From Minisyncoccota bacterium (GTDB lineage: Bacteria > Patescibacteriota > Minisyncoccia > Phycocordibacterales > UBA9973): a stretch of 64,000 bases of DNA. The DNA lies in the NCBI GenBank assembly GCA_041665925.1, contig JBAYHW010000002.1, forward strand, positions 26,838 to 90,837. The letters are read 5' to 3'. This document shows positions 4,381-46,228 of this stretch, one piece after another (position 1 is the stretch's first letter; every line of letters begins with the position of its first letter). Position numbers and translations under genes: made by a program. The notes beneath the pieces were generated by a model that saw nothing but the letters and a program-made list of their open reading frames with translations, was not told the origin of the DNA and did no database searches.

Positions 4381-4467
4381 CCCGTTTAGCGGGGACATTG
4401 ATCTTTGACAAGTGAATAGTTGTTCTTTTTACGTTGGGGTCAAATCCAAAGAAAGGAGGTGAAGAAA

Positions 4468-6039: not shown

Positions 6040-6160
6040 CGCAAAGCTTGCCGGCGGAATTGGCAGGTAATTACAAAGAAAGGGGCAGTCTCAAATCAAA
6101 TCATCGAGACGTAAGACCCCTTTTTCTTTTTCATTATTTTTATGCTAAAATGCCATCACA

Positions 6161-8632: not shown

Positions 8633-8989
8633 ATGCAATACATATTCTCCGGCATAGTTATAAAAGGAGATGGTAACGGCAAGAAAATCGGCTATCCGAC
8701 GATAAACATAGATGAGAAAGATTTCTCATCACTAAAAAAGAAACCAGTTTTTGGTGTTTATAGTGGCAAGGTAACTTTGTCGAGTAAAGTTTATAATGCA
8801 GGGATAATCATAGGCCCTTTGGATAAAAAAGGGTTACTGAAGATTGAAGCACACTTGATAGGCTATAAGGGGAACGCCTATGGCAAGCAAGCAGTTTTCG
8901 AAGTTGCTCGCTTTTTACGCAAATTTAAAAAATTCAAAACTGAAAAAGAGCTTATCAAACAGATAGAGAAAGACTTAGAAAAGTGTTAA
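8633..8989 (+). CDS. Riboflavin kinase (monofunctional, RibF C-domain-like)
   Basis: 118 aa. GIVIKGDGNGKKIGYPTINI matches the G.V..G.G.G...G.PTAN flavokinase motif. C-terminal EAHLIGYKGNAYGKQAVFEVARFLR is also present. Confidence 0.65.
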   Translation: MQYIFSGIVIKGDGNGKKIGYPTINIDEKDFSSLKKKPVFGVYSGKVTLSSKVYNAGIIIGPLDKKGLLKIEAHLIGYKGNAYGKQAVFEVARFLRKFKKFKTEKELIKQIEKDLEKC

Positions 8990-9000
8990 GATAATATTCT

Positions 9001-9924: not shown

Positions 9925-10249
9925 TGATTTATTAAATAAAAAATGCGTACCATGCGAAGGGGGAGTGTTCCCGCTGACACGCGAAGAAATACCCCCTTAC
10001 ATGGCACAAATAAATGGCTGGGAACTTTCCGAAGACGCTACCGAGATTTCTAAGCAGTATAAATTCAAGGATTTTATCGGTGCGATAAATTTCGTGAATC
10101 ACGTAGCCGAAATTGCGGAGGCAGAAGGTCACCATCCAGACATTCATATCAATTACAATAAAGTGAAACTCGTGCTCTCCACGCACGCCATCGGCGGTCT
10201 CTCCGAGAACGACTTTATCCTAGCTGCGAAAGTAGACGCGAGCAAATAA
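9917..10249 (+). CDS. Pterin-4-alpha-carbinolamine dehydratase (PCD/DCoH)
   Basis: 110 aa. CVPCEGG...L near the N-terminus, and the EGHHPDI motif typical of PhhB/DCoH. Confidence 0.7.
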   Translation: MSNDLLNKKCVPCEGGVFPLTREEIPPYMAQINGWELSEDATEISKQYKFKDFIGAINFVNHVAEIAEAEGHHPDIHINYNKVKLVLSTHAIGGLSENDFILAAKVDASK

Positions 10250-10316
10250 AAAAAGGGCGTAGTAGTTGTGTTCCAAACTTGCTACGTCCTCTTTTGCGCG
10301 GGCCAGGCGCGATGAA

Positions 10317-10880
10317 TCAGTGAATGCCACCAGAACTTCCGCAGTAGTGCGAGTCCGATTTAAGCCGGAGTACAATGAACCCACGACGGCGAAGTTGTAA
10401 GAGAGGGTGACGGTTTCCGTTTTTGAATGCGGAAATCGACTTCTCGCGATCTCTGAGGTCTGCTCTGTACTTCTGCATGTCCGTTTTGTATTTCAGAGAG
10501 TACAGCTTGTTGATCTCGTCGATCACCTTCGAGAGTGATCTTTCCAAACCAAGAGATTTAATCTCAGAGATCCTGATTTTAATCTGGCTTCCCTCGAAAC
10601 AAACCTCATCTCTGTAAAGATACGAAGTCTTGGGATTAAATGCCCTCTCGAGCCCTTGACGAATCCATTCAACAGTGAGCTTGCTAGTACCCCGAGGACG
10701 CTTGGGACGGATAGGTTTCCGGAATAGGTCGTCGATGAGATTCTCTTCGCGCTTGTAGACCGCACATGGAATGTTCACTGATGCGAGCGTCTCATCGATT
10801 GTTCCAGTCGCATCCTTGAGTTCTTTCCAATTTCGTACGATCTTGCCGCGCTTGACCGAATATTTTTCGATACTAAGCAT
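10317..10880 (-). CDS. Hypothetical protein (187 aa), unknown family, elevated GC
   Basis: Strong SD AAAGGAGGTGA 8 nt upstream of the minus-strand ATG. GC ~47% against a ~35% background. No recognisable motifs. Lies downstream of a TrpR-like gene of similar GC. Confidence 0.55.
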   Translation of the reverse strand: MLSIEKYSVKRGKIVRNWKELKDATGTIDETLASVNIPCAVYKREENLIDDLFRKPIRPKRPRGTSKLTVEWIRQGLERAFNPKTSYLYRDEVCFEGSQIKIRISEIKSLGLERSLSKVIDEINKLYSLKYKTDMQKYRADLRDREKSISAFKNGNRHPLLQLRRRGFIVLRLKSDSHYCGSSGGIH

Positions 10881-10939
10881 CCCTTTTCACCTCCTTTCTA
10901 TTTGATTTTAAAGAACGATAGGTTTTTCCTACTAACGCA

Positions 10940-10968
10940 AAACCCCCTCCACAATGGAGGGGGTTAGG
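10940..10968. terminator. Bidirectional intrinsic terminator CCCCCTCC-ACAATG-GGAGGGGG flanked by A/T runs
   Basis: Perfect 8-bp GC stem with A-run upstream and T-run downstream (AAAACCCCCTCC...GGAGGGGGTTAGG). Sits between the two minus-strand genes. Confidence 0.5.
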
Positions 10969-10984
10969 TTCGAAATAAAAATAA

Positions 10985-11377
10985 TTACGAGCTCAAACGC
11001 AACCCTTTCCGTTGTGGAGAAGAGTTGCTGCGATGTAAACGAGAAAGAATCAAGCGGTAGCCACCGAGGGAGCCGTAAAGCCATTTGGCGATGCGGGCGA
11101 TGGTGGTGGAAGAAAGCCCCGTCGATTCGCTGATAGCTTCGTATTGGACGTCGCGAGAGAGAAGCCGTGCGGCTTCGAGGCGCTTGCTGAATTCGGTAAT
11201 TTCCGCGGGGGTCAGGAGGTCGCGGAGAAACCGCTTAGCTTCATCGGTCGTTTTCAGCTCTAAAATACCAGCCACCAGCTGCCTGGTTTCCTTGGTATTC
11301 CAATCCGCATCCGAGCCGATCTCGGTCACCAGCCGGACTGTTTTTACCTTCGTATTTTTATTCATTCCCGTACTCAT
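10985..11377 (-). CDS. YerC/YecD-family (TrpR-like) DNA-binding protein, second paralog
   Basis: 130 aa. LRDLLTPAEITEFSKRLEAARLLSRDVQYEAISESTGLSSTTIARIAKWLYGSLGGYRLILSRL matches the YerC/TrpR family pattern very closely. GC ~52%. Confidence 0.75.
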   Translation of the reverse strand: MSTGMNKNTKVKTVRLVTEIGSDADWNTKETRQLVAGILELKTTDEAKRFLRDLLTPAEITEFSKRLEAARLLSRDVQYEAISESTGLSSTTIARIAKWLYGSLGGYRLILSRLHRSNSSPQRKGLRLSS

Positions 11378-15369: not shown

Positions 15370-15934
15370 TCTAGAAAACAAAATAGAAGCAATACTTTTC
15401 TTTAAGGGTGAACCGGTATCTTTTAAAAAATTAGAAGATATTTTGCAAGTTTCCAAGAACGAAATTAAAGATGCTATTTTTAATTTAAAAAATAATTTAG
15501 AAAATAGGGGAGTGGTGCTTTTAGAACAAGGTGAAGAGATAACACTTGGCACCGCACCCGAATTTTCTAAACTCATAGAACATTTACAGAAAGAAGAATT
15601 GAATAAGGAACTTTCTAAAGCATCGCTAGAAACACTTTCAATTGTTTTATATAAAAATGGAGCTAGTCGAGCAGAGATTGATTATATTCGCGGAGTAAAT
15701 TCTAGCTTCACTCTACGTGCACTTTCTGTGCGCGGGCTAGTAGAAAAGACCCTAGATCCGAAGGACAACAGGCGATATATCTATAAACCAAGCTTTGATC
15801 TTATTTCATTTATGGGAGTTACATCTGTGGAAGAACTGCCAGATTATTCAGAAGTGATCAACGGTATTGAAATCGCCACTAAGACCCTAGAAGAAGAAAC
15901 AAAAAAAGAGGAAGCAAATGCAAGCGCAAACTAA
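15347..15934 (+). CDS. scpB: Segregation and condensation protein B
   Basis: 195 aa. IEAILFFKGEPVSFKKLEDIL... and a second winged-helix GASRAEIDYIRGVNSSFTLRALSVRGLVEK, typical of ScpB. Overlaps scpA. Confidence 0.85.
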   Translation: MKIQMNNSLENKIEAILFFKGEPVSFKKLEDILQVSKNEIKDAIFNLKNNLENRGVVLLEQGEEITLGTAPEFSKLIEHLQKEELNKELSKASLETLSIVLYKNGASRAEIDYIRGVNSSFTLRALSVRGLVEKTLDPKDNRRYIYKPSFDLISFMGVTSVEELPDYSEVINGIEIATKTLEEETKKEEANASAN

Positions 15935-17669
15935 AACCTGCCAAAATTGCAAAAACGACTTCACCATAGAGCCGGACGATTTTGGATTTTATGAAAAAAT
16001 AATAGTTCCTCCACCGACCTTTTGCCCGGAGTGTAGACTGCAAAGGAGGCTCGCTTGGAGGAATGAAAAAAGTTTGTATAGTCGAGAATGTGATTTATGT
16101 AAAAAGAAGATGATTTCTATATACAGCGTAGAGGCGAAATCTTTGGTTTATTGCAATCAATGCTGGTGGGGCGATGGATGGGAAGGAAATCAGTACGCAA
16201 TGGATGTGGATTTCTCAAGACCTTTTCTGAATCAGTTTTTTGATCTTTTCCATAAAGTTCCTGCTCCCAACCTTTTTGCGTTTAGTAAAAATATGGTTAA
16301 TTCCCAATATTGCAACATGGCCAACGATATGAGAAATTGTTATTTGGTCCACGATGGAACCTTTGACGAAAACGTTTCTTATGGTAGTGGAGTTTTTCAT
16401 TCCAAAGATTCTCAAGACGTTACAATGGTTCGTAAATGTGAGCTGTGTTATGAAATTATAACCTGCATTAATTGCTACCATACTACTTTTTCACAGCAGT
16501 GTGAGGATTGCGTTGACGTACACTTTTCTTTTGGGCTAAGGGGTTGCAACAATTGTTTTGGTTGCGTGAACTTACACAAGCAGAGTTATTGTATTTTCAA
16601 TGAACAATATACCAAAGAGGAATATGAAGAAAAATTGAAATCGTTTGGAATTGATTCTTATAAAAAGGTGAATGAATTGAAAGATAAGGTACACGAGTTC
16701 TGGAAAAAATTCCCCAAGAGATATTATTTTGGTGTTCAAAATTTAAACGTAACGGGTGACTATCTTGAGCATTCTAAAAACGCAAAGTCCTGTTTTGGTG
16801 CAGCAAATTTAGAAGATTCAAAATTTTGTTCATTTGTTTCGAACGGACCAGTAAAAACAACTTATGATTTTACCCATTACGGAGATAACATAGAACTAGT
16901 CAACGAATCTTTGCAGTCAGGAGACGGCATATATAATATAAAATGTGGTTGGGGCACATGGACTAATTCAAGGAATGTGAATTACGGCATTACTTGTCCA
17001 GGAGTTTCAGATATTTTTGGATGTGTTGGGGTTAAGAAAAAACAATATTGTATTTTAAATAAACAATATACTAAAGAAGAATACAAAGAATTGGTTTCAA
17101 AAATTATTAAACATATGAATGAGATGCCTTACATTGATAAGAAAGGCAGAATTTATAAATATGGTGAATTCTTCCCAGTAGATTTTTCACCTTTTGGATA
17201 CAATGAAACGACTGCGCAAGAATATTTTCCCCTAGATCAAGCGCAAGCAATTGCAAAAGGTTACAATTGGAAAGAAAACAAGGAACGAAATTATCACATA
17301 ACAAAAGATTCAGAAGAACTTCCTGATAATATCAATGAAATTGCTGACTCACTTTTAGACGACGTAATTGGCTGTGCACACAAGGGAAGATGTGAAGATG
17401 ACTGTATGACTGCTTTTAAAATTTTATCCGAGGACTTGAAATTTTACCGACGAATGAATTTGCCCTTACCCAGACTTTGCCCCAACTGCAGACGCTACCA
17501 GAGAATAAAATTAAGGAATCCGCTCAAACTTTGGCACAGGCAATGCATGTGTGATAAAAAGCACCCTAACCACGAAGGAAAATGCGAAGTAGAATTCGAA
17601 ACTTCCTACGCACCCGATAGACCAGAAATAATTTATTGCGAAAGTTGTTATAACAAAGAAGTCTACTAA
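15918..17669 (+). CDS. Large cysteine-rich protein (583 aa, ~36 Cys mostly as CxxC pairs), unknown family; paralog A
   Basis: N-terminal zinc-ribbon module CQNC...FYEKIIVPPPTFCPECRLQRRLAWRN...CDLC. Homologous C-terminal module FYRRMNLPLPRLCPNCRRYQRIKLRNPLKLWHRQCMC. Central Cys-rich repeats end in YCIFNEQYTKEEYEE / YCILNKQYTKEEYKE. Overlaps scpB stop by 17 nt. Confidence 0.7.
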   Translation: MQAQTKTCQNCKNDFTIEPDDFGFYEKIIVPPPTFCPECRLQRRLAWRNEKSLYSRECDLCKKKMISIYSVEAKSLVYCNQCWWGDGWEGNQYAMDVDFSRPFLNQFFDLFHKVPAPNLFAFSKNMVNSQYCNMANDMRNCYLVHDGTFDENVSYGSGVFHSKDSQDVTMVRKCELCYEIITCINCYHTTFSQQCEDCVDVHFSFGLRGCNNCFGCVNLHKQSYCIFNEQYTKEEYEEKLKSFGIDSYKKVNELKDKVHEFWKKFPKRYYFGVQNLNVTGDYLEHSKNAKSCFGAANLEDSKFCSFVSNGPVKTTYDFTHYGDNIELVNESLQSGDGIYNIKCGWGTWTNSRNVNYGITCPGVSDIFGCVGVKKKQYCILNKQYTKEEYKELVSKIIKHMNEMPYIDKKGRIYKYGEFFPVDFSPFGYNETTAQEYFPLDQAQAIAKGYNWKENKERNYHITKDSEELPDNINEIADSLLDDVIGCAHKGRCEDDCMTAFKILSEDLKFYRRMNLPLPRLCPNCRRYQRIKLRNPLKLWHRQCMCDKKHPNHEGKCEVEFETSYAPDRPEIIYCESCYNKEVY

Positions 17670-18564: not shown

Positions 18565-20301
18565 ATGAAGGCGGAAATTAAAGTTTGTCAAAACTGCAAG
18601 AGTGATTTTACGGTAGAGCCGGATGATTTTGGATTTTATGAAAAAATCAAAGTTCCTCCACCGACCTTCTGTCCGGATTGTAGGAGACAGAGACGCTGGG
18701 CTTGGCGGAACAACATGTCGCTCTATAATCGACAATGTAAGTCCTGCGGCAAAGGCGTGATTTCACTTTACCATCCTGATTCAGGCCTAACTGTTTATTG
18801 TAATAAGTGTTGGTGGAGCGACAAATGGGATTCAAAAAGTTTTGGCGTAGATTATGATTTTTCAAAACCATTTTTTACTCAATTCCGAGAACTTATAGGA
18901 AAAGTTCCACACATGTCTATTGTAAATGATAATGATATTGCAAGTTTAAATTGCGAATATACCCACGACTGGTGGTTCTCTAAGAATTGCTATATGTGTT
19001 TTTCTGGGTGGAATACAGAGAATATAATGTATAGTTTTTTTATTCTTGCTGGTAGAGATATGGTTGACTGTATGAACATAAGATCAAAAAGTGAGCAGTT
19101 ATATGAATGTATTATTTGTTCGCATGGTTACCAAGTTAAAAATTCAATTTATTCTAGTTCTTGTTTGAATTCACAATTTTTATATTGGTGTAAAAATTGC
19201 AGTGATTGTTTTTTGTGTTCAGAATTAGTTGGTAAAAAATATTGTTACAAGAATGAGCAATATTCAGAAGAAGAATACGAAAAGATTTTAAAAGAATATA
19301 GATTAGATACTTGGAGCGGGGTAGAGCGGGCTCAAAAAGAATATGATGAATTTATTTTAAAATTTCCTAGAAAATATAGTAATTCTATTCGGAACTTAAA
19401 TTGTACTGGAGAGCTAGTATCTGATTCAAAGAATTCAAAAAATTGTTTTGTGACAAAAAATGCGGAAAATTGTAGATATAATGAATATTCGGGAGATGGT
19501 AATAATTCAAATAAAGATTGCTACGATATTACAACCACAGGTGGAGTATCGGAATGTTATGAATGTGTTGTTGGAGATCACTCGCAGTTTAATTTGTTTG
19601 GACTTTTTTCGGTTAAAAGTCAAGATATAAAATATTGTCAGCATTGTCATAACTGTAAACATTGTTTCGGGTGCGTCGGGTTGCGCAATGCGAATTATTG
19701 TATTTTTAATAAACAATATACCAAGAAAGAATATGAGGAGTTAGTGCCTAAAATAATTAGACATATGAATGACATGCCTTATGTCGACAAAAGAGGAAAT
19801 GAGTATAAATTTGGGGAGTATTTTCCTGTAGAGCTTTCGTATTTTGGATATAATGAATCCTGCGCAATGGAACAATTTCCCCTTGATAAACAGAAAGTCC
19901 TTGAGAACAAATATAATTGGCAAGACAATATTCAGCGAACAACAGGGAAGGAAACACTAGAATCAGACAAAATTCCCGAAAGTATAGATGAAGTAAACGC
20001 TTCAATACTGAAGGAAGTGCTAGCTTGTATAGAATGCCACAGAAACTACAAAATAGTTCCTAATGAATTAATATTCTACAGAAAAATGAAGATTCCTATT
20101 CCGAGAAAGTGTTTTTATTGTCGTCATGAGGCTAGAATTAAAAGAAATAATCCTTTTAAACTCTGGCATAGGCAATGTATGTGTGATAAGAAACATCCAC
20201 ATCACGAAAAGAAGTGCGGGATAGAATTTGAGACGAGTTACGCACCCGATAGACCGGAGATAGTGTACTGTGAAAAATGTTATCAAGCGGAAGTTTATTA
20301 G
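18565..20301 (+). CDS. Large cysteine-rich protein (578 aa), paralog B of 15918-17669
   Basis: Collinear with paralog A. MKAEIKVCQNCKSDFTVEPDDFGFYEKIKVPPPTFCPDCRRQRRWAWRN... at the N-terminus and ...NPFKLWHRQCMCDKKHPHHEKKCGIEFETSYAPDRPEIVYCEKCYQAEVY at the C-terminus are near-identical to A. Central CxxC repeats with YCIFNKQYTKKEYEE. Confidence 0.7.
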   Translation: MKAEIKVCQNCKSDFTVEPDDFGFYEKIKVPPPTFCPDCRRQRRWAWRNNMSLYNRQCKSCGKGVISLYHPDSGLTVYCNKCWWSDKWDSKSFGVDYDFSKPFFTQFRELIGKVPHMSIVNDNDIASLNCEYTHDWWFSKNCYMCFSGWNTENIMYSFFILAGRDMVDCMNIRSKSEQLYECIICSHGYQVKNSIYSSSCLNSQFLYWCKNCSDCFLCSELVGKKYCYKNEQYSEEEYEKILKEYRLDTWSGVERAQKEYDEFILKFPRKYSNSIRNLNCTGELVSDSKNSKNCFVTKNAENCRYNEYSGDGNNSNKDCYDITTTGGVSECYECVVGDHSQFNLFGLFSVKSQDIKYCQHCHNCKHCFGCVGLRNANYCIFNKQYTKKEYEELVPKIIRHMNDMPYVDKRGNEYKFGEYFPVELSYFGYNESCAMEQFPLDKQKVLENKYNWQDNIQRTTGKETLESDKIPESIDEVNASILKEVLACIECHRNYKIVPNELIFYRKMKIPIPRKCFYCRHEARIKRNNPFKLWHRQCMCDKKHPHHEKKCGIEFETSYAPDRPEIVYCEKCYQAEVY

Positions 20302-21412: not shown

Positions 21413-22513
21413 ATGAAAGAAAAAAAAGTAGATAAATTTTTCTTAATAATTATATTTATTTTACTCGCCTTTGGCGTGGCAATGTTTATTTCGGCGTCTT
21501 TAGGGGTTCTGGCGAAAAATGCAAATATTTTTTATTCCATACTTTTTAGTCAGCTGATCCTAGGGCTTGGGCTGGGATTGGTAGGTATGTACATTGCTTC
21601 AAAAATACATTATAAAGTTTGGCGTAATTTTTCTTTTCTAATTTTTTTGGCATCCATACTTCTAACTGCTGCGGTTTTTATACCTTCTTTTGGGTGGAGT
21701 CATGGAGGAGCCCAGAGGTGGATACAGATAGGAGGTTTTACTTTTCAACCTGTTGAATTTTTAAAATTTGGTTTTGTGATTTATTTTGCAGCATGGTTAT
21801 CTTGGGTGAAAACCAGGGTAGGGGATTTCAGATTTGGAATCTTACCCTTCGGTATTATGTTAGCGGTTATTGCCTTTGTTTTATTAAAGCAACCAGATAC
21901 AAAAAGCTTTATTTTGATTACAATTACTGGGATTTCCATGCTTTTCCTTTCTGGGGTTCCGATTAAATATATTTTCGGTGTTGGCTTTGGGGTAGTATTT
22001 TTATTGGCTGGGCTTGTGTATTATAAACCATACTTACAAGATAGGGTTAAAACTTATATTAATCCAAGTGCAGATGCTCGAGGATCTTCTTATCAAATTC
22101 AGCAATCGTTTATTGCTCTCGGCTCGGGCGGGGTATTAGGAAGGGGATTTGGTCAAAGCGTTCAGAAATTCGGCTACCTTCCTGAACCGCAAGGAGATTT
22201 TATTTTTGCTGTTATGGGAGAAGAACTTGGTTTTGTCGGCGGGCTGGTGACTATATTTTTATATCTTTTATTTTTATTGCGAGGGTTTCGTATTGCGAAC
22301 AGGTCGCCAGATTTGTTCAGTGGACTTTTAGTCTACGGAATTGTTATACTCATTACTGTACAGTCGTTTATGCACATTGCTTCGGTTACTGGAGTGTTCC
22401 CGTTGACGGGGGTGCCCCTAGTTTTTATGAGTCAGGGGGGGACTTCGCTTATGGTATATCTGGTCGCAATAGGTATTGTATTTAACGTATCAAAATTTCA
22501 AAAAAATTTATGA
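21413..22513 (+). CDS. ftsW: SEDS-family peptidoglycan glycosyltransferase FtsW/RodA
   Basis: 366 aa, ~10 TM helices. Conserved FIFAVMGEELGFVGG and the MSQGG.S motif typical of FtsW/RodA. Confidence 0.85.
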   Translation: MKEKKVDKFFLIIIFILLAFGVAMFISASLGVLAKNANIFYSILFSQLILGLGLGLVGMYIASKIHYKVWRNFSFLIFLASILLTAAVFIPSFGWSHGGAQRWIQIGGFTFQPVEFLKFGFVIYFAAWLSWVKTRVGDFRFGILPFGIMLAVIAFVLLKQPDTKSFILITITGISMLFLSGVPIKYIFGVGFGVVFLLAGLVYYKPYLQDRVKTYINPSADARGSSYQIQQSFIALGSGGVLGRGFGQSVQKFGYLPEPQGDFIFAVMGEELGFVGGLVTIFLYLLFLLRGFRIANRSPDLFSGLLVYGIVILITVQSFMHIASVTGVFPLTGVPLVFMSQGGTSLMVYLVAIGIVFNVSKFQKNL

Positions 22514-23640
22514 AAATAGTTTTTACAGGAGGAGGCACCGGAGGACATTTCTATCCAATAATTGCTGTCGTCCAAAAAGTAAATCAAATCATTGATCGGG
22601 AGCACATAGTCGGTGCAAAATTATACTATATTTCTGATAGTCCTTACGACAAAGAAGTTTTAATGGAAAACGGGCTGCTATACGAAGGAATAATTACCGG
22701 CAAGATGCGGACGTACTTTTCCTTTAAAAACTTTTCCGATGTTTTTAAAATATTTTTCGGCACTATCAATGCAATTTATAAATTGTTTTCTATTTATCCA
22801 GATGTGGTTTTCGGTAAGGGCGGATATGCGTCATTTCCGACAATCTGCGCGGCGAGATTTTTACGTATTCCTGTTATTATCCATGAATCTGATTCTGCTC
22901 CAGGACGGGTAAATAGATGGGCAGGAAAATTTGCTAAAAAAATTGCCGTCTCGTTTCCTGAGGCCGTAGAATATTTCCCCAAAGATCGCACAGCTTGGAC
23001 AGGGCAACCAATAAGAACTGAAATAGAAAACAGAGCTCCTAGAGAAGAAGCTCTAGAATATTTCAAACTTGAATCAAACTTGCCAGTGATTTTTATTACT
23101 GGAGGTTCACAAGGGGCAGAACTAATAAATAATGCCATCCTAGACGCCTTGCCAAAACTAGTAGAAAATTATCAGGTTATTCATCAAACTGGAGTGAAAA
23201 ATTTCCCTACGACTTCAGGACAAGCCGAGGTGGTTCTCTCTGGCAATAAACATAAATCTAGATACTTACCTTTTCCTTTTTTAAACGTTCTACAGATGAA
23301 AATGGCGGCTGGGGCAGCAACTATAATAATTTCACGCGCCGGATCTACGCTGTTTGAAATTGCGGCTTGGAACGTACCCTCAATTTTAATTCCTTTTACG
23401 AATTCCAATGCTGATCATTCTAAGAAAAATGCTTTTAATTACGCTAGAGCCGGAGCATGTAGTGTCATAGAAGAAGCAAATATGACTGCCAATATTCTAA
23501 ATTCTGAAATTGAGAGAATTTTAACTGATAAGCAAGGTTATGAACAAATGAAGCAGAGCGCTATAGCTTTCAATAAACCTGGTGCGGCGGAAAAAATCGC
23601 CCGTGAAATAGTAGATATTGCTCTCAGCCACGAGAAGTAA
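22510..23640 (+). CDS. murG: UDP-N-acetylglucosamine--N-acetylmuramyl-(pentapeptide) pyrophosphoryl-undecaprenol N-acetylglucosamine transferase
   Basis: 376 aa. N-terminal VFTGGGTGGHFYPIIAV and C-terminal GT-B fold region (ISRAGSTLFEIAAWNVPSILIP). Confidence 0.88.
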   Translation: MKIVFTGGGTGGHFYPIIAVVQKVNQIIDREHIVGAKLYYISDSPYDKEVLMENGLLYEGIITGKMRTYFSFKNFSDVFKIFFGTINAIYKLFSIYPDVVFGKGGYASFPTICAARFLRIPVIIHESDSAPGRVNRWAGKFAKKIAVSFPEAVEYFPKDRTAWTGQPIRTEIENRAPREEALEYFKLESNLPVIFITGGSQGAELINNAILDALPKLVENYQVIHQTGVKNFPTTSGQAEVVLSGNKHKSRYLPFPFLNVLQMKMAAGAATIIISRAGSTLFEIAAWNVPSILIPFTNSNADHSKKNAFNYARAGACSVIEEANMTANILNSEIERILTDKQGYEQMKQSAIAFNKPGAAEKIAREIVDIALSHEK

Positions 23641-23705
23641 CTCTTGCTTTTTTCAATAATTGTGATATAATATATTTAATCAAACTGTACATTTAGGAGG
23701 AGACG

Positions 23706-24182
23706 ATGTTTCAGAAGTTCGTGTCTCTGGGGGAGTTCAGCAAACTCTCACATAAAGACAAAACGGTTGTGATGACCACTGGGGTGTTTGACGTGCCACA
23801 CGTAGGGCATCCACGCTACTTATACACGGCAAGGATGCTGGGCGACCTGCTCGTGGTCGGAGTGCATTCCGACGAGCTGGTTCGCCAGAGGAAGGGTGAA
23901 GGACGACCGATTTACCCACTGGAAGAGCGGGTGGAGTTGTTGTCTTATTACGGTTGCGTGGACTTCATCCTGGAACTCAAAGACCAGGAAGATGTCTATG
24001 GGACGATCCGGACCGTAAGGCCAAAAATCCTAGTGGTGTCGACGACCACTGAGGACGAGGCCAACAGCCCGGCCACCATGAGCTCAATGTTCGGCGACAG
24101 CATGGCGGTTGCCGTACTCGGGCCACAGTCATTCCGACACACGACAGATCTCGTCGAAAAACAGGAGGTGATCGAAAAATGA
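23706..24182 (+). CDS. Cytidylyl/adenylyltransferase-like protein (RfaE domain II / TagD-like nucleotidyltransferase), GC-rich
   Basis: 158 aa. TTGVFDVPHVGHPRYLYTARMLGDLLVVGVHSDELVRQRKGEGRPIYPLEERVELL matches the HIGH-type nucleotidyltransferase core of heptose-1-P adenylyltransferase / glycerol-3-P cytidylyltransferase. SD GGAGGAG upstream. GC ~54% against ~35% in the flanks. Confidence 0.65.
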   Translation: MFQKFVSLGEFSKLSHKDKTVVMTTGVFDVPHVGHPRYLYTARMLGDLLVVGVHSDELVRQRKGEGRPIYPLEERVELLSYYGCVDFILELKDQEDVYGTIRTVRPKILVVSTTTEDEANSPATMSSMFGDSMAVAVLGPQSFRHTTDLVEKQEVIEK

Positions 24183-24255
24183 GCCTATCGAGGGAAGACT
24201 ATGCTTTCTTTGGTAGGCTTTTCTCATTTTCATATAAAAATGCTAAAATGGACAT

Positions 24256-25671
24256 ATGTCAGATAAAGTAGTAACAAGATTTGCGCCTTCGCCTACGGGT
24301 TTTATGCATGTGGGTGGAGTACGAACGGCTCTTTATGCTTGGCTTTTAGCCAAGAAAGAAAACGGACAGTTTATTTTACGTATTGAAGATACTGATAAAG
24401 AAAGAGAAGTGGAGGGGTCTATTGGCCATATTCAAGAGTCATTAAAATGGCTTGGGCTTAATTGGGATCAAGGTCCTGATATTGGCGGGCCACATGCTTC
24501 ATATATTCAATCTGAAAGATTAGATTTATATAAAAAATACGGTGAGCAACTTATCGAAAAAAATTTCGCCTATGCTGATCCTTATACAGAAGAAGAAATA
24601 GAAAATTTTAGAAAAAAATCTGAAGAAGATAAAAAGCCATTTTTATATCGCGAGCACAGACCCGAGAATCCGCCAATGTGGGATGGCACAAAGCCTCTTC
24701 GTTTTAAAGTTTCTGAATTAAAACGTACAGAATGGAAAGACATTGTCTGGGGAGATTTATCCGCAGGACCAGAAGCTCTAGATGATTTTATTTTAATAAA
24801 GAGTGACGGGTATCCGACTTATAACTTTGCCCACGTGGTGGACGACATAGAGATGGGAGTGACACACGTAATGCGTGGACAAGAATTTATTTCTTCTACG
24901 CCGAAGTTTCTGGCATTATACGAAGCGCTAGGTGCTACACCGCCACTTTTTGCTACGACTCCGCCAATAATGGGCCCTGATGGCAAGAAAAAGCTTTCTA
25001 AGCGTGATGGAGCGAAGGATCTACTGGATTATGAAAAAGAAGGCTACCTACCGGAAGCAATGATAAACTACCTTGCTTTTCTCGGTTTTAATCCCGGCGG
25101 AGAAAAAGAAATTTATACGCCAGAAGAATTGATAAAAGTTTTTGATTTAACTAAAATCCAACGCTCTGGTGCGAGATGGGACGACGAGAAATTAAACTGG
25201 ATGAATAAGGAACATATTAAATTACTTCCTAAAGAAGAAATTGAGAAAAACATTTTAGCTATATTGCCAGAGAGCATGCAAAATCCGAAACTTGTTCCAG
25301 TAATCTTAGAGAGGATTTCCAAATGGGGAGATGTAAAAGATATGGTAGCAAGAGGGGAGTTAGATCTATTTTTTAAAGCGCCTGAATTTGAGAAAAACAA
25401 ACTTATTTTTAAGAATACTTCACCCGAAAAAATAACTGAGAATTTAAATTCCGCAATTCAAACACTTTCTTCTTTGGAAGAAAAGAATTTTACGTATGAA
25501 AATATTAAAAACTCTCTGATGTCAATAGCCGATAAATTAGAGAGTAGGGGAGAGGTGCTTCATCCGGTGCGCTATGCCCTCTCAGGAAAAGATAAATCTC
25601 CAGATCCGTTTATTATTGCCGAGATTTTAGGAAAAAATGAAACTTTATCAAGACTACAAAACGCTATTTAA
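24256..25671 (+). CDS. gltX: Glutamyl-tRNA synthetase
   Basis: 471 aa. RFAPSPTGFMHVGGVRTALY (HIGH region) and KLSKRDG (KMSKS). Confidence 0.92.
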   Translation: MSDKVVTRFAPSPTGFMHVGGVRTALYAWLLAKKENGQFILRIEDTDKEREVEGSIGHIQESLKWLGLNWDQGPDIGGPHASYIQSERLDLYKKYGEQLIEKNFAYADPYTEEEIENFRKKSEEDKKPFLYREHRPENPPMWDGTKPLRFKVSELKRTEWKDIVWGDLSAGPEALDDFILIKSDGYPTYNFAHVVDDIEMGVTHVMRGQEFISSTPKFLALYEALGATPPLFATTPPIMGPDGKKKLSKRDGAKDLLDYEKEGYLPEAMINYLAFLGFNPGGEKEIYTPEELIKVFDLTKIQRSGARWDDEKLNWMNKEHIKLLPKEEIEKNILAILPESMQNPKLVPVILERISKWGDVKDMVARGELDLFFKAPEFEKNKLIFKNTSPEKITENLNSAIQTLSSLEEKNFTYENIKNSLMSIADKLESRGEVLHPVRYALSGKDKSPDPFIIAEILGKNETLSRLQNAI

Positions 25672-33346: not shown

Positions 33347-34714
33347 TTACAAGGATGCGAGTTTTGGTGCAAGGCCTACGTAGTTTTCTGGAGTAATTCC
33401 CAGAAGCTCTTTTTTTATTTTATCGCTGACATTCAGGGAGCGTATGAATTGATGGATGTCTTCTAGTGTAACTTTTTTCCCACGAGTAAGATCCTTCAAT
33501 TTTTCATACGGTGTTTCTACTCCTTCTCTGCGCAATATAGTCTGAATAGCTTCAGTAATGACCTCAGGGTGTTCCAATAAAGTCTTCACAACTTTCTCTT
33601 TATTAACTTCTATTCTAGATAATCCACTTAGTAAATATTCATATGCAATAAGTGAGTGTGCGAAGGCTACGCCGAAATTTCTTTCTACTGTAGAGTCAGA
33701 TAGGTCACGCTGTAGACGCGAAATCGGAAGTTTTCTAGCGAAAAATTCAAAGAGAGAATTAGCTAACCCAAAATTTCCTTCACTGTTTTCAAAGAAAATC
33801 GGATTTATTTTATGTGGCATTGTAGATGATCCTACTTCCCCTGCTTTTGGTTTCTGGACTACCCATTCGTCAGAAATATATCTCCAGATATCTTGGTTGA
33901 AATCAAGTAAAATTGTGTTTATTCTCCTGAGCGTATCGAAAATTGCTACATAACTATCATGGCATTCAATCTGGGTGGTAATAAGATTTGGCGCTAGCTT
34001 CTGTGTTCTTTTTTTATTAAAGCTCTCAATATATTTTTTACTGAATTCTATCCAATTTACATGTGGGTATGCTGACATGTGAGCATTAAAATTTCCCGTT
34101 GCCCCGTTTAACTTAGCTGCAATTTTTATGCTTTCTAATCCTTCCAATCTTTTCTCTATCCTTGTGGCGAAAACTTTCATTTCTTTGCCGAAAGTTGTAG
34201 GAGAAGCAGGCTGTCCATGGGTGCGAGCTAGCATGGGTAGATTTTTGTATTTTTTTGCAAGTAGATTTAATTCTGAGATTATCTTTTCAATTTTAGGAAT
34301 TAAAACATTTTCTAGAGAACCTGAAAGCATTAAGGCGTAAGCTATGTTGTTCGTATCTTCGGAAGTTAAAGCAAAATGTACCCACTCCACACTATCCTTG
34401 AGGGAAGTTTTTTCCAATTTTTCTTTAATAAAGTATTCTACAGCTTTAACGTCGTGATTTGTGGTATTTTCTATTTCTTTTATATTTTTATATGAAACTT
34501 CATTAAATTTTTCAGAAAGGTTTCTGATAATTTTTATTTCAGCTGGAGTAAATTTTCTTAGAGCTGTTTTCCTGGAAAGCGAAAGAGCAATTAAGTATTC
34601 ACCCTCCATCAATACTCGATATTTCATTAAAGCCTCTTCGGAGAAATAAGCCGCAAGCGCGTGAGTTTTTTCAAAATATCTTCCATCTATTGGACTGATA
34701 ACATTATTATACAT
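33347..34714 (-). CDS. purB: Adenylosuccinate lyase
   Basis: 455 aa. SPIDGRY N-terminus and fumarate-lyase signature SSTMPHKINP. Confidence 0.9.
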   Translation of the reverse strand: MYNNVISPIDGRYFEKTHALAAYFSEEALMKYRVLMEGEYLIALSLSRKTALRKFTPAEIKIIRNLSEKFNEVSYKNIKEIENTTNHDVKAVEYFIKEKLEKTSLKDSVEWVHFALTSEDTNNIAYALMLSGSLENVLIPKIEKIISELNLLAKKYKNLPMLARTHGQPASPTTFGKEMKVFATRIEKRLEGLESIKIAAKLNGATGNFNAHMSAYPHVNWIEFSKKYIESFNKKRTQKLAPNLITTQIECHDSYVAIFDTLRRINTILLDFNQDIWRYISDEWVVQKPKAGEVGSSTMPHKINPIFFENSEGNFGLANSLFEFFARKLPISRLQRDLSDSTVERNFGVAFAHSLIAYEYLLSGLSRIEVNKEKVVKTLLEHPEVITEAIQTILRREGVETPYEKLKDLTRGKKVTLEDIHQFIRSLNVSDKIKKELLGITPENYVGLAPKLASL

Positions 34715-34766
34715 ACATATATTATACCATAATTATTAATATTTTACAAGTACTCCAGAAAACCCA

Positions 34767-35759
34767 TTATTTTTTCAAATTTTTAGTAATTCTTTCTAAG
34801 ACGGGCATACTAAAATCATGGTTGAAAGGTTGACCAGTAATCATTTCGTAAATTTCTATATAACGACGGGAAAGCTCAGCTACTAGCTCAACTGGGGCAG
34901 GAGGCAAAACTTCATCTTTGTACGGATCGCAATGCTCCTTAAACCAAAGCCTAAGAAATTCTTTGTCGAAATATTCTGGTTCTTCTCCTTGTTGAAATCG
35001 GGCCTCATAACTTTCTGCTTTCCAGTATCGAGAAGAGTCGGGGGTATGAATCTCGTCTATTAACATTAACTTCCCGTTTTCATCTATTCCCATCTCATAT
35101 TTTGTATCCACCAGTATTAATCCCCTACTAAGAGCAACTTCTTGACCCCTCTTGAAAAGTTTTAAGGCTGTTTCAGACATTTCCGCCCATAATTCTTTTG
35201 AAACTATATTTTCTTCTATAATTTCTGCCGAGGTAATTGGGCGGTCGTGTTCATCGGACTTTGTAGTCGGAGTCAAAACCGGAGTGTCTAATTTTTGGTT
35301 TTTCTTCATTCCTTCTGGCAATGTGAAGTCTCCGAAATTTCTCTGTCCGTTATTATAAATAGTCCAGAGAGAAGTATTTGTTGAGCCAGTAATGTAGCCA
35401 CGAACCACCATTTCTATCGGAATTACCTTGCATTTTTTTGCTACTAAGACATTCGGGTCAGGTGTACTTAGAACATGATTTTGAACAATGTCTTTTGTTT
35501 TTTCAAACCAGAATAAACTTATTTGATTTAAGACTTCCCCTTTGAAAGGTATGGAGGCTATATTTCTATCGAATGAAGAATGTCTGTCGGTGGAGATAAG
35601 GGTAATGTGATCTTGGGCGACATAAATATCTCTTACTTTACCTATCTTCCTTTCACCGAGTTCGGGAAAATTAGTTTCTTTTAATACATCATCTATATGT
35701 TCCTTAATTTTACCTATGTCCATATTAAAAAATTTATTTATAAATAATAATTTTACCAA
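34767..35759 (-). CDS. purC: Phosphoribosylaminoimidazole-succinocarboxamide synthase (SAICAR synthetase), long form
   Basis: 330 aa. IGKVRDIYVAQDHITLISTDRHSSFD matches the PurC ATP-binding N-terminus. Long (eukaryote/Gram-positive-like) form. Confidence 0.85.
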   Translation of the reverse strand: MVKLLFINKFFNMDIGKIKEHIDDVLKETNFPELGERKIGKVRDIYVAQDHITLISTDRHSSFDRNIASIPFKGEVLNQISLFWFEKTKDIVQNHVLSTPDPNVLVAKKCKVIPIEMVVRGYITGSTNTSLWTIYNNGQRNFGDFTLPEGMKKNQKLDTPVLTPTTKSDEHDRPITSAEIIEENIVSKELWAEMSETALKLFKRGQEVALSRGLILVDTKYEMGIDENGKLMLIDEIHTPDSSRYWKAESYEARFQQGEEPEYFDKEFLRLWFKEHCDPYKDEVLPPAPVELVAELSRRYIEIYEMITGQPFNHDFSMPVLERITKNLKK

Positions 35760-36894
35760 GTGTAAGTTTTGAATTTACTAAAACTCTTGGCTCATCTTCT
35801 TTTGTAATTTTACCGGCAATTTTTGCTTTTATGGAAAAATCCTTAGCTCTTTTGATGCAATAATCCGCATCTTTTTCATCCACTACTATCAACATACCTT
35901 GTCCCCCATTCCATACTTCATAAAATTCTTCATCGGAGATGTTGTGCCACAAGGCGCACTTCTTCATAATTTCTGGAGGTTCCCACAGATCAAAAAGTTC
36001 TGCGGACAGTTTTTTCGAGAAAAGAATATCTTTTGCAAGTTTCTCTTTAAGTGCTCCTCCTGAAAGGTGAACAATAGATTTTATTTCTATTTCAGATTTA
36101 AAATTGGGATCATACCATCCATGTAAAGTATTAATAAATACATCATACAGTACAGATGGGCATGCTGCTTGTTTGATACTTGTTTGTGCTTCTGGGTTTT
36201 CCCACCATTTTGTCCCGAATTTATCTTGAAATGCTTTTCTCACTGAAGTTCCGCCATTACACCTGAAACCTTCTTCTTTTAGGGCTATTATCACTTGTCC
36301 TGGTTTTAATTTATCCCCAGTTATCATTTTCAGAGGATGGTAAGCTCCGATCATTACTCCAGACCAATTAAATTTTGTTTGCGATCCAATTATCTCTGAA
36401 CCTAGAGCATCTTTTACTTGGGCAGTCTCCCCCTTGAGTGCTACTATATTGCTAATTTTTGTGACTTCACCTAAACCTCGCAAAAGATTTTTATAAGTTT
36501 CACTAACTTCATTTCCGGCTTGCCCTATGCCGTTGGTATCCAAGATATTAAGAAAAACTAAAGGTATGCCTCCATAACGGGTTACATCGCTTGCGGTCAT
36601 GGCGATAATATCATAAGCTGCCGTTCTGTGCATTTTAGCTGCGTCTACCAGAATACCCTTAGTTCCCATACCATCAGCTGTTGCCTCAATAAAATATCCT
36701 TCTGGTAAATTTTTAAAAACAAAAGGCCTAGGACCCCTAAAATTACCTTCAGATAAATCTTTTACTTCTACGTATGGAGAATTGTTATAACTTTCTTTAC
36801 AAATAGACCCAGCAAAACTACTAAACGCTGCTTCTTCATCAATGTCTACACCATCCTGCGAAGAAATTTTTGTTTTGGTAGTGTTTTCATCCAT
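35734..36894 (-). CDS. purM: Phosphoribosylformylglycinamidine cyclo-ligase (AIR synthetase)
   Basis: 386 aa. TADGMGTKGILV (DGVGTK motif), with PurM N- and C-domains collinear. Confidence 0.85.
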   Translation of the reverse strand: MDENTTKTKISSQDGVDIDEEAAFSSFAGSICKESYNNSPYVEVKDLSEGNFRGPRPFVFKNLPEGYFIEATADGMGTKGILVDAAKMHRTAAYDIIAMTASDVTRYGGIPLVFLNILDTNGIGQAGNEVSETYKNLLRGLGEVTKISNIVALKGETAQVKDALGSEIIGSQTKFNWSGVMIGAYHPLKMITGDKLKPGQVIIALKEEGFRCNGGTSVRKAFQDKFGTKWWENPEAQTSIKQAACPSVLYDVFINTLHGWYDPNFKSEIEIKSIVHLSGGALKEKLAKDILFSKKLSAELFDLWEPPEIMKKCALWHNISDEEFYEVWNGGQGMLIVVDEKDADYCIKRAKDFSIKAKIAGKITKEDEPRVLVNSKLTLGKIIIYK

Positions 36895-36897
36895 GTT

Positions 36898-37413
36898 TTA
36901 TTTCTCTAAATATTTCTTATATCCAATTTCTGAAAGCTTATCACCTTTAGTGGTCTGCTCGTCGCTCATTTTTATTTTATAATCCTTTAATTTTTCTTCT
37001 AGATCTTTGTCTTCAGTAGCAAGGATCTGTATTGCTAGAAGCCCCGCATTTTTCCCTGCATTGATACCTACCGTGGCAACAGGAATTCCTGGAGGCATTT
37101 GAACTGTTGAGAGAAGTGAATCTAATCCGTCTAAGCTTTTGGCTTTTACAGGCAAGCCGATAACTGGGAGCGTCGTATGCGCGGCGATAACTCCAGCTAA
37201 GTGTGCTGCGCCTCCTGCGCCAGCAATTAAAACTTTGATCCCACGTTCTCTGGCACCAGAGGAATATTTTTGCGCTCTTTCTGGGGCGCGATGGGCAGAA
37301 CCGACTGTCATGTCGTAAGTTACCCCAAATTCTTCAATAATTTTTGCCGCTTCAGCGAAGACTTCTAAATCCGAATCCGAACCCATTATTATGCCAACTT
37401 TTGGATTTTTCAT
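36898..37413 (-). CDS. purE: N5-carboxyaminoimidazole ribonucleotide mutase
   Basis: 171 aa. VGIIMGSDSDLEV and the conserved GGAAHLAGV loop. Confidence 0.88.
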   Translation of the reverse strand: MKNPKVGIIMGSDSDLEVFAEAAKIIEEFGVTYDMTVGSAHRAPERAQKYSSGARERGIKVLIAGAGGAAHLAGVIAAHTTLPVIGLPVKAKSLDGLDSLLSTVQMPPGIPVATVGINAGKNAGLLAIQILATEDKDLEEKLKDYKIKMSDEQTTKGDKLSEIGYKKYLEK

Positions 37414-37491
37414 CCCAGTATCAAAAATTTAAAATTTATAATATGACCTTTAACTTACCTCCGTAGATTTTGATACGGGACAGGTATAAAT

Positions 37492-38778: not shown

Positions 38779-38783
38779 ATCTT

Positions 38784-39497: not shown

Positions 39498-39561
39498 TTT
39501 TATTTAAATGTTATAACAAATTTGAGAACAAGGTGATGAAGTAGTCATCACTATTATTATT

Positions 39562-46227: not shown

Positions 46228-46228
46228 T

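Follow-up and report, generated by a model that had tools for sequence, protein, structure and literature searches.

What is a GC-rich gene doing between two AT-rich housekeeping genes of a Patescibacteria genome, where did it come from, and what might its product make? The gene in question (23706..24182, forward strand; 158 aa, ATG start) is placed between the murG stop at 23640 and the gltX start at 24256 of a 64-kb stretch of DNA, hereafter the window. Both neighbors are AT-rich and native: murG on the left (22510..23640, forward strand), with the N- and C-terminal Glyco_transf_28 domains of Pfam, and gltX on the right (24256..25671, forward strand), with Pfam tRNA-synt_1c.

The compositional break at this locus is pronounced. 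The gene has a GC content of 0.541 and a third-position GC (GC3) of 0.673, against 0.387 and 0.305 for murG, 0.379 and 0.299 for gltX, and a GC content of 0.379 over the whole window. Its GC3 ranks highest among the 61 open reading frames (ORFs) of at least 100 aa in the window, corresponding to z = 7.2 relative to the 56 native ORFs (mean 0.310, s.d. 0.050). A preliminary description of the sequence had put the gene at about 54% GC and out of line with its flanks, as these values bear out, although the flanks measure about 38% and not about 35% as it stated. In windows of 30 codons, GC3 stays between 0.63 and 0.73 throughout the gene, compared with 0.20–0.41 in the windows closing murG and 0.27 in those opening gltX; the composition step is therefore sharp and covers the whole coding sequence. 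No GC-rich donor tract was visible in the ends of murG and gltX. Codon usage, which the preliminary description had proposed to check, likewise marks the gene as foreign to the native model: its synonymous codon usage lies about 12 s.d. from the native genes (log-likelihood under the native model), and the difference in codon log-likelihood between the native model and that of L042, a GC-rich relative described below, is −0.195 for this gene (native minus L042), against +0.219 ± 0.033 for native genes. The best codon-usage fit was to the other GC-rich islands of the window. Amino-acid composition is shifted in the same direction, and so is GC1.

The gene appears to be equipped with its own control elements. 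Reading the sequence, we recognized a candidate promoter (23644..23671, forward strand) with a −35-like TTGCTT (23644–23649), a 16-nt spacer and an extended −10 element, TGaTATAAT (23663–23671). The element TTGTGATATAAT, directly 3′ of the murG stop, is kept in all cassette-bearing relatives, including L042. A consensus promoter scan did not call this promoter, because its −35 fits at only three of six positions. The Shine-Dalgarno sequence AGGAGG (23695..23700, forward strand), also read from the sequence, is located 5 nt upstream of the ATG, with GGAGG or AAGGAG as its counterpart in relatives. Downstream, a terminator scan detected an intrinsic terminator (24181..24230, forward strand) consisting of a hairpin with a 17-bp stem (24181–24220) followed by TTCTCATTTT; its predicted RNA fold has an energy of −23.5 kcal/mol (z = −4.9), and an equivalent hairpin and T-run are present in the relatives. 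The gltX promoter, called by the promoter scan (24221..24249, forward strand; TTCTCA, 17 nt, TAAAAT with an upstream TG), marks where the insertion site ends on the right. In relatives this promoter element appears as TGCTAAAAT or TGTTAGAAT 3′ of the cassette terminator, and in L044, a relative with an empty site, it stands directly after the murG stop. Taken together, positions 23641–24255 read as a self-contained accessory cassette of promoter, Shine-Dalgarno sequence, 158-aa gene and terminator, in which the gene is predicted to be monocistronic. The promoter region and Shine-Dalgarno sequence noted in the preliminary description are thereby recovered, together with a terminator. The AT-rich nature of the promoter is no guide to origin: the intergenic control elements of the window are conserved in L042 at the DNA level and are AT-rich even there.

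About 12 other Nomurabacteria-like contigs have this promoter-gene-terminator cassette in their murG–gltX slot, and the gene is therefore no one-off foreign insertion. The order mraY-ftsW-murG-NT-gltX-M23, where NT is the nucleotidyltransferase gene, was seen in L001, L003–L009, L013–L018, and L043. However, in our empty-site set, the four relatives nearest by MurG whose downstream sequence is readable (L044, L045/46, L048, and L049/50; MurG 81–83% identical to that of the window), murG and gltX are separated by only 16–56 nt and there is no cassette, whereas the cassette-bearing AT-rich group is farther by MurG (71–74% identical). The presence of the cassette is thus patchy at exactly the murG–gltX site among Nomurabacteria-like Patescibacteria. 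These empty sites agree with the earlier statement that the gene was inserted between murG and gltX, and they led us to revise a reading of in situ allele replacement at a universally conserved slot.

Composition in these relatives follows the host. In the AT-rich relatives the GC3 of the cassette gene is 0.18–0.32, equal to that of its own flanks, and the twelve AT-rich relatives examined revealed no GC enrichment specific to the cassette gene. The preliminary description would have given up a foreign origin had homologs of equal GC been found at the same position in relatives; homologs do occupy the same slot, but with the GC of their own genomes. Among the relatives, only L042, a short soil contig whose GltX is 87% identical to that of the window, has a GC-rich cassette copy, next to an equally GC-rich gltX (GC3 0.59 for both genes); this contig spans only 1.7 kb, and its genome-wide GC is inferred from these two genes. 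Further afield, L011 carries an AT-rich family copy (GC3 0.32) among neighbors with GC3 of 0.56–0.66, and the copies in L011 and L019 lie in genomic contexts other than murG–gltX. Such mismatches suggest that this nucleotidyltransferase family moves between genomes. The best homolog of the window’s protein is 63% identical, all pairs in the gene tree are 53–68% identical, and the tree is star-like. By neighbor joining, the window’s copy falls inside the Patescibacteria subfamily (94% bootstrap), in a basal position and not as sister to L042, with internal support of at most 55%.

We consider it probable that the cassette copy in the window is a recent import from a GC-richer Patescibacteria lineage whose murG–gltX slot contains this cassette as well. 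Foreign composition and codon usage, along with the empty sites in the closest relatives, support the horizontal acquisition proposed earlier. The donor would be a related Patescibacterium and not a distant organism, because same-slot homologs are found in relatives and the only GC-rich copy is that of L042, beside a GC-rich gltX. Either the site was empty beforehand, or a resident allele would have been replaced. DNA uptake was probably the route, followed by recombination, homologous or of the short-homology type, at flanks conserved across the GC divide: the murG 3′ end, the gltX 5′ end and, between them, the AT-rich elements of promoter and terminator. The imported coding sequence would not yet have drifted to the AT-rich codon usage of its host. 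In Saccharibacteria, experiments have demonstrated natural competence and the homology-directed insertion of a cassette (PMC10633639), and the majority of detected Patescibacteria gene transfers are between Patescibacteria (PMC12455944). The window resembles transfer by natural transformation and homologous recombination in this group in that a gene of foreign composition lies between conserved housekeeping genes, a donor from within the group is inferred, and DprA is encoded at 62586–63479. It differs in that the import comprises a single gene together with its control elements, in a slot that is full or empty depending on the lineage, and without integrase, transposase, or flanking repeats.

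Two other explanations of the GC-rich copy were weighed against import. Had the cassette been inherited vertically from a common ancestor with L042, its GC would have been kept or raised in situ: by selection on expression or mRNA stability, by GC-biased gene conversion at a hot spot of recombination, or because an ancestor was richer in GC. L042, the closest relative by GltX, does have a cassette with GC3 0.59, the murG–gltX locus is a recombination hot spot, and the 63% identity between the cassette proteins of the window and L042 is in line with the rapid evolution of this gene at comparable flank divergence, as in the L001–L003 pair (64%, at a MurG identity of 85%). Yet a genome-wide AT mutational bias would have reset the synonymous sites of the gene as it has in gltX, where GC3 is 0.30 for the window but 0.59 for L042 although the proteins are 87% identical; the shift extends to GC1 and amino-acid composition; and neither the absence of gene-specific GC enrichment in the twelve AT-rich relatives nor the absence of the gene from the four closest relatives by MurG fits such a history, which we regard as quite improbable. 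An assembly or binning chimera, in which some 500 bp of a co-occurring GC-rich relative were spliced into an AT-rich contig, could draw on relatives that differ in composition, some GC-rich and others AT-rich, but share the synteny and short conserved intergenic elements. Those elements (11–14 nt) are, however, shorter than the assembly k-mers, and a chimera would need two exact crossovers, 500 nt from each other, with promoter, Shine-Dalgarno sequence, reading frame, and terminator all left intact. Moreover, an independent Logan assembly contig, L041 (1518 nt), is identical to window positions 22786..24303, and the MEGAHIT k141 contig and the Logan contig agree over both composition junctions, which makes an artifact extremely improbable.

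Several further features of the locus were considered as traces of its history. We found no direct or inverted repeats flanking the cassette, no Rfam match that could point to a tRNA site, and no integrase, transposase, or other mobility gene adjoining it, and the lack of flanking repeats speaks against a mobile element as its carrier. An ATGA overlap at 24179 with a short ORF beyond it could have been the remnant of a downstream donor gene; this was ruled out, the segment being the terminator hairpin of the cassette, which is also found in relatives. AT-rich relatives have a hairpin and U-run between promoter and Shine-Dalgarno sequence that is absent in the window, and we discarded this absence as a marker of the left recombination junction since L042 and L043 are also without the hairpin. 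A structured RNA or antisense gene as the cause of the high GC is disfavored by an Rfam scan, which returned no match, and antisense ORFs of 51–60 aa are an expected by-product of high GC. A defense or phage link is similarly disfavored: PADLOC gave no match, and the sole PHROG match was to a generic HldE-like family, covering the N-terminal half.

On the preferred reading of import, the locus would be a well-bounded example of exchange among ultra-small Patescibacteria whose genomes are about 20 points apart in third-position GC. It is an ordinary kind of gene-exchange event and opens no long-standing question; the full-or-empty slot agrees with the known pattern of the phylum, namely frequent transfer within Patescibacteria and natural competence.

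We then turn to the product. The protein matches Pfam PF01467 (CTP_transf_like; 52.9 bits, gathering cut-off 21) and TIGR00125 (54 bits, cut-off 27.7), and the HxGH (HIGH) signature after its first strand, H32-V-G-H35, is invariant in both of our alignments (A1 and A2). Its AlphaFold2 model (pLDDT 92, pTM 0.87) has the Rossmann-like alpha/beta fold of the family, and the top PDB matches of the model are all members of the cytidylyltransferase-like family. Its nearest relatives among HIGH-type nucleotidyltransferases are HldC and RfaE domain II. Sequence and model together identify the product as an intact nucleotidyltransferase of the HIGH-motif type whose fold resembles that of HldC. It belongs to a small Patescibacteria-specific subfamily with the signatures PHVGHPRYL, VVSETTED, and QSxxHSTD, which comprises only about a dozen clusters. 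The window’s protein retains 50 of the 51 positions invariant in this subfamily, and on that basis the gene is predicted to be functional. The HIGH-type core of the preliminary description is confirmed, and all motifs that it quoted are found in the sequence.

The chemistry is most likely the transfer of a nucleoside monophosphate: the enzyme would move it from an NTP to a small molecule that bears a phosphate, with NDP-X and pyrophosphate as products, and the catalytic parts are likely H32-x-G-H35, K63-G64, and the C-terminal H145-T-T-D motif. The identity of the acceptor is less certain. With HldC/RfaE domain II the protein has in common its single-domain size, the HxGH and KG motifs and, at the C-terminal end, an (S/T)TT-type motif that precedes a helix. 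It nevertheless scores 94.4 bits against the HldC/RfaE-II equivalog TIGR02199, below the cut-off of 181.5, and the ATP-stacking Phe143 of HldC is not conserved. The hallmark motif of heptose nucleotidyltransferases is (F/L)xxGxSTT (PMC11573728, PMC11461863); at this position the window has PQSFRHTT and the subfamily consensus (P/A)QSxxHSTD, with Gly and Ser replaced, and the window’s copy retains the Arg at position 5. HldC also has predicted heptose-1-phosphate motifs, TNG/NSD/KG/ExTP/KGG (PMC7993394), for which a pairwise alignment to BpHldC gives TTG, HSD, KG, QEDV, and VST. Only one of the five (KG) is kept, and the replaced motifs are conserved in the same form across the subfamily. The predicted acceptor pocket is accordingly unlike that of characterized heptose-1-phosphate adenylyltransferases, and the substrate assignment stays putative for this reason. 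The single most likely candidate is a sugar 1-phosphate, which we put forward tentatively. The earlier designation as an RfaE-domain-II-like or glycerol-3-phosphate cytidylyltransferase core stands as regards the HIGH-type fold and the proximity to HldC/RfaE-II, but both equivalog cut-offs are missed (for TagD, TIGR01518, 27.9 bits against 165.4) and the heptose hallmark motifs are absent.

Could the enzyme instead be a CDP-alcohol-type cytidylyltransferase like TagD, ECT, or CCT, one that supplies a membrane or wall polymer with an activated polyol phosphate or amino-alcohol phosphate? Superfamily and fold are shared, the alignment is good over the N-terminal two thirds, and the subfamily profile scores 88 bits against ECT (both domains), level with the 89 bits for HldC. 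In addition, a distant family member, P0271, carries two fused domains as read from its sequence, a membrane domain resembling CDP-alcohol phosphatidyltransferases and a GT2 domain. The score against the TagD equivalog, however, is far under its cut-off, and the C-terminal substrate and CTP motifs are absent from the window’s protein. RYVD, GDDW, and RTEGISTT are the motifs of the TagD/ECT/CCT group, and none is present in the subfamily alignment. With no transferase partner in the 64-kb window either, we judge this reading unlikely. We give still less weight, and see little chance, for a cofactor adenylyltransferase, either an FMN adenylyltransferase serving the standalone riboflavin kinase of the window (8633–8989) or an archaeal-type phosphopantetheine adenylyltransferase. 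The kinase domain lacks the usual fused FAD-synthetase domain and adjoins an EamA transporter, and there are weak matches to Pfam FAD_syn PF06574 (19.4 bits, gathering threshold 27) and to the archaeal-type phosphopantetheine adenylyltransferase NF001985 (45.6 bits, cut-off 104), but all cofactor-family scores fall under their own cut-offs. The FMN variant is further weakened by distribution: standalone riboflavin kinase occurs in hundreds of Patescibacteria, whereas the nucleotidyltransferase gene is rare, and since the subfamily has about a dozen clusters and is missing from the closest relatives, it is not a general riboflavin kinase partner. The Thermoplasma volcanium structure 3glv, deposited as ‘LPS core biosynthesis protein’ and presumably RibL-like (archaeal FAD synthetase), scores lower than HldC; RibL has conserved C-terminal cysteines, which the window’s protein does not appear to share.

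The preliminary description had further proposed that the enzyme feeds a surface glycopolymer pathway, and had suggested looking for a partner kinase or glycosyltransferase. This proposal finds no support within 64 kb: among the ORFs scanned there we detected no kinase, isomerase, or extra glycosyltransferase partner, and, in contrast to the HldC pathway, no GmhA, HldA, or GmhB. The gene does lie in a cell-wall gene neighborhood, between murG and gltX, but its tie to the cell-wall genes is positional only, the gene being apparently monocistronic. A literature search on Patescibacteria cytidylyltransferases returned nothing relevant. More speculatively, the VVSETTED/QSxxHSTD branch might have a remodeled acceptor pocket and produce an NDP-activated metabolite distinct from ADP-heptose, CDP-glycerol, and the known cofactors. 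Lineages would in that case exchange the gene as a promoter-to-terminator cassette at the fixed murG–gltX slot, its product being under diversifying, lineage-specific selection, for instance through contacts with hosts or phages at the cell surface; we hold this scenario to be possible but rather unlikely.

The subfamily is uncharacterized, and automated annotation labels its members ‘RfaE/HldE’ or ‘cytidyltransferase’. Because the subfamily is without the motifs that define those activities, such labels are unfit for inferring ADP-heptose synthesis in these organisms. Lastly, the C-terminal tail had been described as atypical and rich in Thr, Ser, and Ala. Its composition is real, but in the model the segment is a regular part of the fold, comprising the last regular strand (134–138) and a helix (146–157), and it carries motifs that are conserved across the subfamily.

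The nucleotidyltransferase gene between murG and gltX (23706..24182, + strand; 158 aa) stands out from an AT-rich segment (window GC 37.9%), with a GC of 0.541 and a GC3 of 0.673, against 0.387 and 0.305 for murG (stop at 23640) and 0.379 and 0.299 for gltX (start at 24256). Its GC3 is the highest among the 61 window ORFs of at least 100 aa and lies 7.2 sd above the compositionally normal ones (n=56; mean 0.310, sd 0.050), which bears out the GC-rich ORF reported at this position in the preliminary description. Every 30-codon window of the gene has a GC3 of 0.63-0.73, and the value falls to 0.2-0.4 in the stretches of murG and gltX next to it. We also compared how well synonymous codon choice fits a native model and a model derived from gltX of L042, a GC-rich soil contig; the gene gave a difference of -0.195 and native genes one of +0.219 ± 0.033, and its codon usage was best matched by the window's other GC-rich islands. 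An independent assembly of run SRR6484324, from Logan, matches window 22786..24303 exactly, covering both composition steps, and the NCBI record of the identical protein is a Candidatus Paceibacterota MAG (124-kb contig).

The gene is carried in a cassette (23641-24255) with its own control signals, all on the + strand. Read from the sequence, these are a -35-like TTGCTT (23644-23649), a 16-nt spacer, an extended -10 TGaTATAAT (23663-23671) and a Shine-Dalgarno AGGAGG (23695-23700) 5 nt 5' of the ATG. A consensus scan made no call for this promoter because its -35 is weak; its -10 block is kept in all relatives with the gene. A hairpin with a 17-bp stem and a T-run extends from 24181, inside the stop codon, to 24230 (-23.5 kcal/mol, z = -4.9), and the promoter scan placed the gltX promoter at 24221-24249. 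With its own promoter and terminator, followed by the gltX promoter, the gene is therefore a monocistronic unit, and its relation to mraY-ftsW-murG is positional, not operonic. Rfam gave no match at the locus, and no flanking repeats were found around the cassette. In AT-rich relatives, a short hairpin and U-run (ACCTCG...GAGGTTTTTT) separates the cassette promoter from the Shine-Dalgarno (L003 9935-9985; equivalent sites in L005, L009, L014, L015 and L017). This leader element, which looks like a terminator or attenuator, is missing from the window, L042 and L043.

The murG|gltX slot is occupied in roughly a dozen Nomurabacteria-like contigs (L001, L003-L009, L013-L018 and L043), in the same mraY-ftsW-murG-[gene]-gltX-M23 peptidase arrangement as in the window and with homologues 52-63% identical. 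Cassette-bearing relatives share the promoter block, terminator and gltX -10 element, and in these contigs the GC3 of the gene (0.18-0.32) equals that of its flanks without exception. The gene is fast-evolving, with protein pairs 53-68% identical versus 71-90% for MurG. These AT-rich contigs are not the window's closest relatives; a MurG search recovered >100 clusters 77-84% identical to the window protein. Four of the closest whose sequence can be read beyond murG were examined (L044, L045/46, L048 and L049/50; MurG 81-83%), and in all four the site was empty, with a murG-gltX gap of only 16-56 nt and, in L044, the gltX -10 element TGCTAAAAT directly 3' of the murG stop. A fifth relative, L047, has unrelated GC-rich sequence 3' of murG, at its contig end (2041-2110). 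Since other relatives bear the cassette and the four close ones examined have empty sites, it is a presence/absence polymorphism at a fixed site, which is usually empty among the organism's nearest neighbours.

The spacer 3' of murG looks like a local insertion hot spot: it contains two additional small ORFs with no family match in L001 (9014-9787), two small ORFs, one Nfu_N-like, in L017 (3950-4700), and ~580 additional nt in L010 (1106-1683). Two gltX allele types, only ~50% identical to each other, were also observed (L044 7148-8452, L048 3691-5001 and L005 8340-9647 compared with window 24256-25671). In relatives that are otherwise close, the type present does not track MurG identity, and this housekeeping neighbour of the slot has therefore itself been swapped between lineages.

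L042 (1.7 kb) has the cassette at the same place, with a GC3 of 0.59 in both the nucleotidyltransferase gene and gltX. Its GltX is 87% identical to the window's, compared with 83-85% in the empty-site AT-rich contigs L045 and L049 and ~73% in the cassette-bearing AT-rich L001 and L003. Thus, the required type of donor exists, a sister lineage of higher GC whose flanks are homologous. The intergenic control elements of L042 are AT-rich and alignable to the window's at the DNA level, so the AT-rich promoter region noted earlier is uninformative as to native origin; the import may have comprised the entire 23641-24255 segment. The window and L042 proteins are 63% identical and show no specific relationship, and a neighbour-joining tree placed the window copy within the Patescibacteria subfamily (94% bootstrap), in a basal position with weak internal support. 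The actual donor lies outside the sampled sequences.

The gene has a foreign composition, the cassette is conserved, close relatives have empty sites, and a GC-rich lineage bears the cassette; the most parsimonious account of these results is that the cassette was recently acquired from a Patescibacterium of higher GC. We infer the direction, mechanism and recency of this transfer, the last because GC3 is uniformly high with no drift to host codon usage. We consider vertical retention with GC enrichment of this gene alone unlikely: the gltX genes of the window and L042, at 87% protein identity, have diverged completely in GC3, and such gene-specific enrichment was seen in none of the 12 AT-rich relatives examined. 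An assembly chimera is likewise unlikely, as it would need two frame-preserving junctions and two assemblies agree. The earlier suggestion of horizontal acquisition is supported by foreign composition and empty sites in close relatives, with the correction that the donor is a related bacterium and the slot is common to other lineages.

The imported cassette would have either entered a vacant murG|gltX site or replaced an allele already there, probably by recombination in sequences alike across the GC divide, namely the 3' end of murG, the blocks with the promoter and the terminator, and the strongly conserved 5' end of gltX. The window encodes DprA (DNA-processing protein A; 62586-63479), consistent with natural transformation as a route for its imports. 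Natural competence and homology-directed cassette insertion have been demonstrated in Saccharibacteria (PMC10633639), and inferred Patescibacteria transfers are mostly Patescibacteria-to-Patescibacteria (PMC12455944). The event, a within-phylum transfer, and the enzyme, a divergent member of the cytidylyltransferase fold, are both of a known kind. A mirror image of the window anomaly is found in L011, where an AT-rich copy of the family (201-683; GC3 0.32) lies among genes with a GC3 of 0.56-0.66. L011 is a GC-rich Nomurabacteria-labelled MAG, with adjoining uvrB and tgt at 0.62-0.66; its copy and that of L019 are in genomic contexts other than murG|gltX.

The protein has the fold and catalytic motifs of a HIGH-motif nucleotidyltransferase, matching Pfam CTP_transf_like above threshold (52.9 bits; cut-off 21) and yielding a confident AlphaFold2 model (pLDDT 92, pTM 0.87). 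In this model, the C-terminal stretch, rich in Thr/Ser/Ala as previously noted, is no tail but belongs to the fold, as its final strand (134-138) and helix (146-157). Among solved relatives, HldC of Burkholderia pseudomallei is the best match (7.8e-17), with human ethanolamine-phosphate cytidylyltransferase and 3glv next. By analogy with the superfamily, the reaction would be NTP + X-phosphate -> NDP-X + PPi, with an acceptor probably other than the canonical heptose-1-phosphate. The (F/L)xxGxSTT hallmark of heptose nucleotidyltransferases (PMC11573728, PMC11461863) is replaced by PQSFRHTT in the window protein and (P/A)QSxxHSTD in close homologues, and the predicted heptose-1-phosphate motifs of HldC (TNG/NSD/KG/ExTP/KGG; PMC7993394) read TTG, HSD, KG, QEDV and VST. 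RfaE domain II is indeed the nearest family, as first proposed, but the replaced hallmark and a score far under the equivalog cut-off (rfaE_dom_II, the top NCBIfam model; 94.4 versus 181.5 bits) argue against membership; the TagD, archaeal phosphopantetheine adenylyltransferase and FAD_syn models were much weaker, all under their cut-offs. The replacements are kept throughout the gene's own subfamily, whose signatures are GVFDVPHVGHPRYL, LVVSETTEDxDNxPxTM and QSxxHSTD. Of the 51 positions that do not vary among 12 other members, the window protein retains 50 (sole change S146T), and it is therefore a constrained, presumably active enzyme.

The family is rare: when 1.84 billion representative proteins were scanned in full with HMMER, only 37 reached E <= 1e-30. 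Among them are lysine-rich single-domain proteins (150-205 aa) with identical C-terminal motifs, tandem-domain forms, and fusions, one with a HIT domain and one with a CDP-alcohol-transferase-like membrane domain and a GT2 domain. A sister subfamily (195-205 aa, with a C-terminal helical extension) occurs in L012 (4550-9156) and L020 (4868-10104) within a conserved deoxynucleotide and folate operon encoding dUTPase, DHFR, the nucleotidyltransferase, a dCMP-deaminase fusion, a HIT protein and ThyA, plus GlyA in L020. This operon context hints that part of the family acts in nucleotide metabolism rather than glycan synthesis.

Around the cassette, MurG, GltX and the M23 peptidase were assigned by Pfam, and MraY and FtsW by at least 70% identity to orthologues with a Pfam annotation. 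Among the ORFs scanned in the 64-kb window, none encodes a SIS isomerase, PfkB kinase or further glycosyltransferase, leaving the proposed feeding of a surface glycopolymer pathway unsupported by partner genes there. PADLOC gave no hit for the gene, and the only PHROG match was a generic HldE-like family. A standalone riboflavin kinase beside an EamA transporter (8633-9924) suggests that the gene could supply a missing FMN adenylyltransferase, but this is doubtful, since the same single-domain kinase architecture occurs in hundreds of Patescibacteria and the gene is rare. The kinase domain (118 aa) is without the fused FAD-synthetase domain of bacterial RibF, and the transporter directly 3' of it is possibly a riboflavin importer.

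Other genes of the window encode DnaB, TrpRS/TyrRS-type and Asx-type tRNA synthetases, SerRS, Dus, a GNAT protein, VanY, a CofD-like protein, a sigma factor and a HAD protein; the ORFs at 15918-17669 and 18565-20301 had no Pfam match when scanned. The window also holds, at 33347-49707, a complete de novo purine operon (purB, purC, purM-like, purE, purD, purN, purF, purQ and purL) along with purA and guaB, and prs at 6161-7177, a purine biosynthetic set fuller than usually reported for the phylum.

A second, larger GC-rich island (3900-6040; 54-60% GC) lies just upstream of prs, flanked by AT-rich spacers with strong hairpins. It contains a small Cys-rich ORF (3996-4168) and a 539-aa ORF (4420-6039; GC3 0.60) whose second half opens with a Rossmann-like MNPIKIAVVGFGDFG; it had no Pfam, PHROG or PADLOC hits, and its codon usage is similar to that of the nucleotidyltransferase gene. 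A third GC-elevated patch (9917-11377) comprises a pterin-4a-carbinolamine dehydratase (GC3 0.49), an uncharacterised 187-aa ORF (0.54) and a Trp-repressor-like ORF (0.62). Together, the three islands suggest that this AT-rich genome has repeatedly imported DNA from GC-richer ones.
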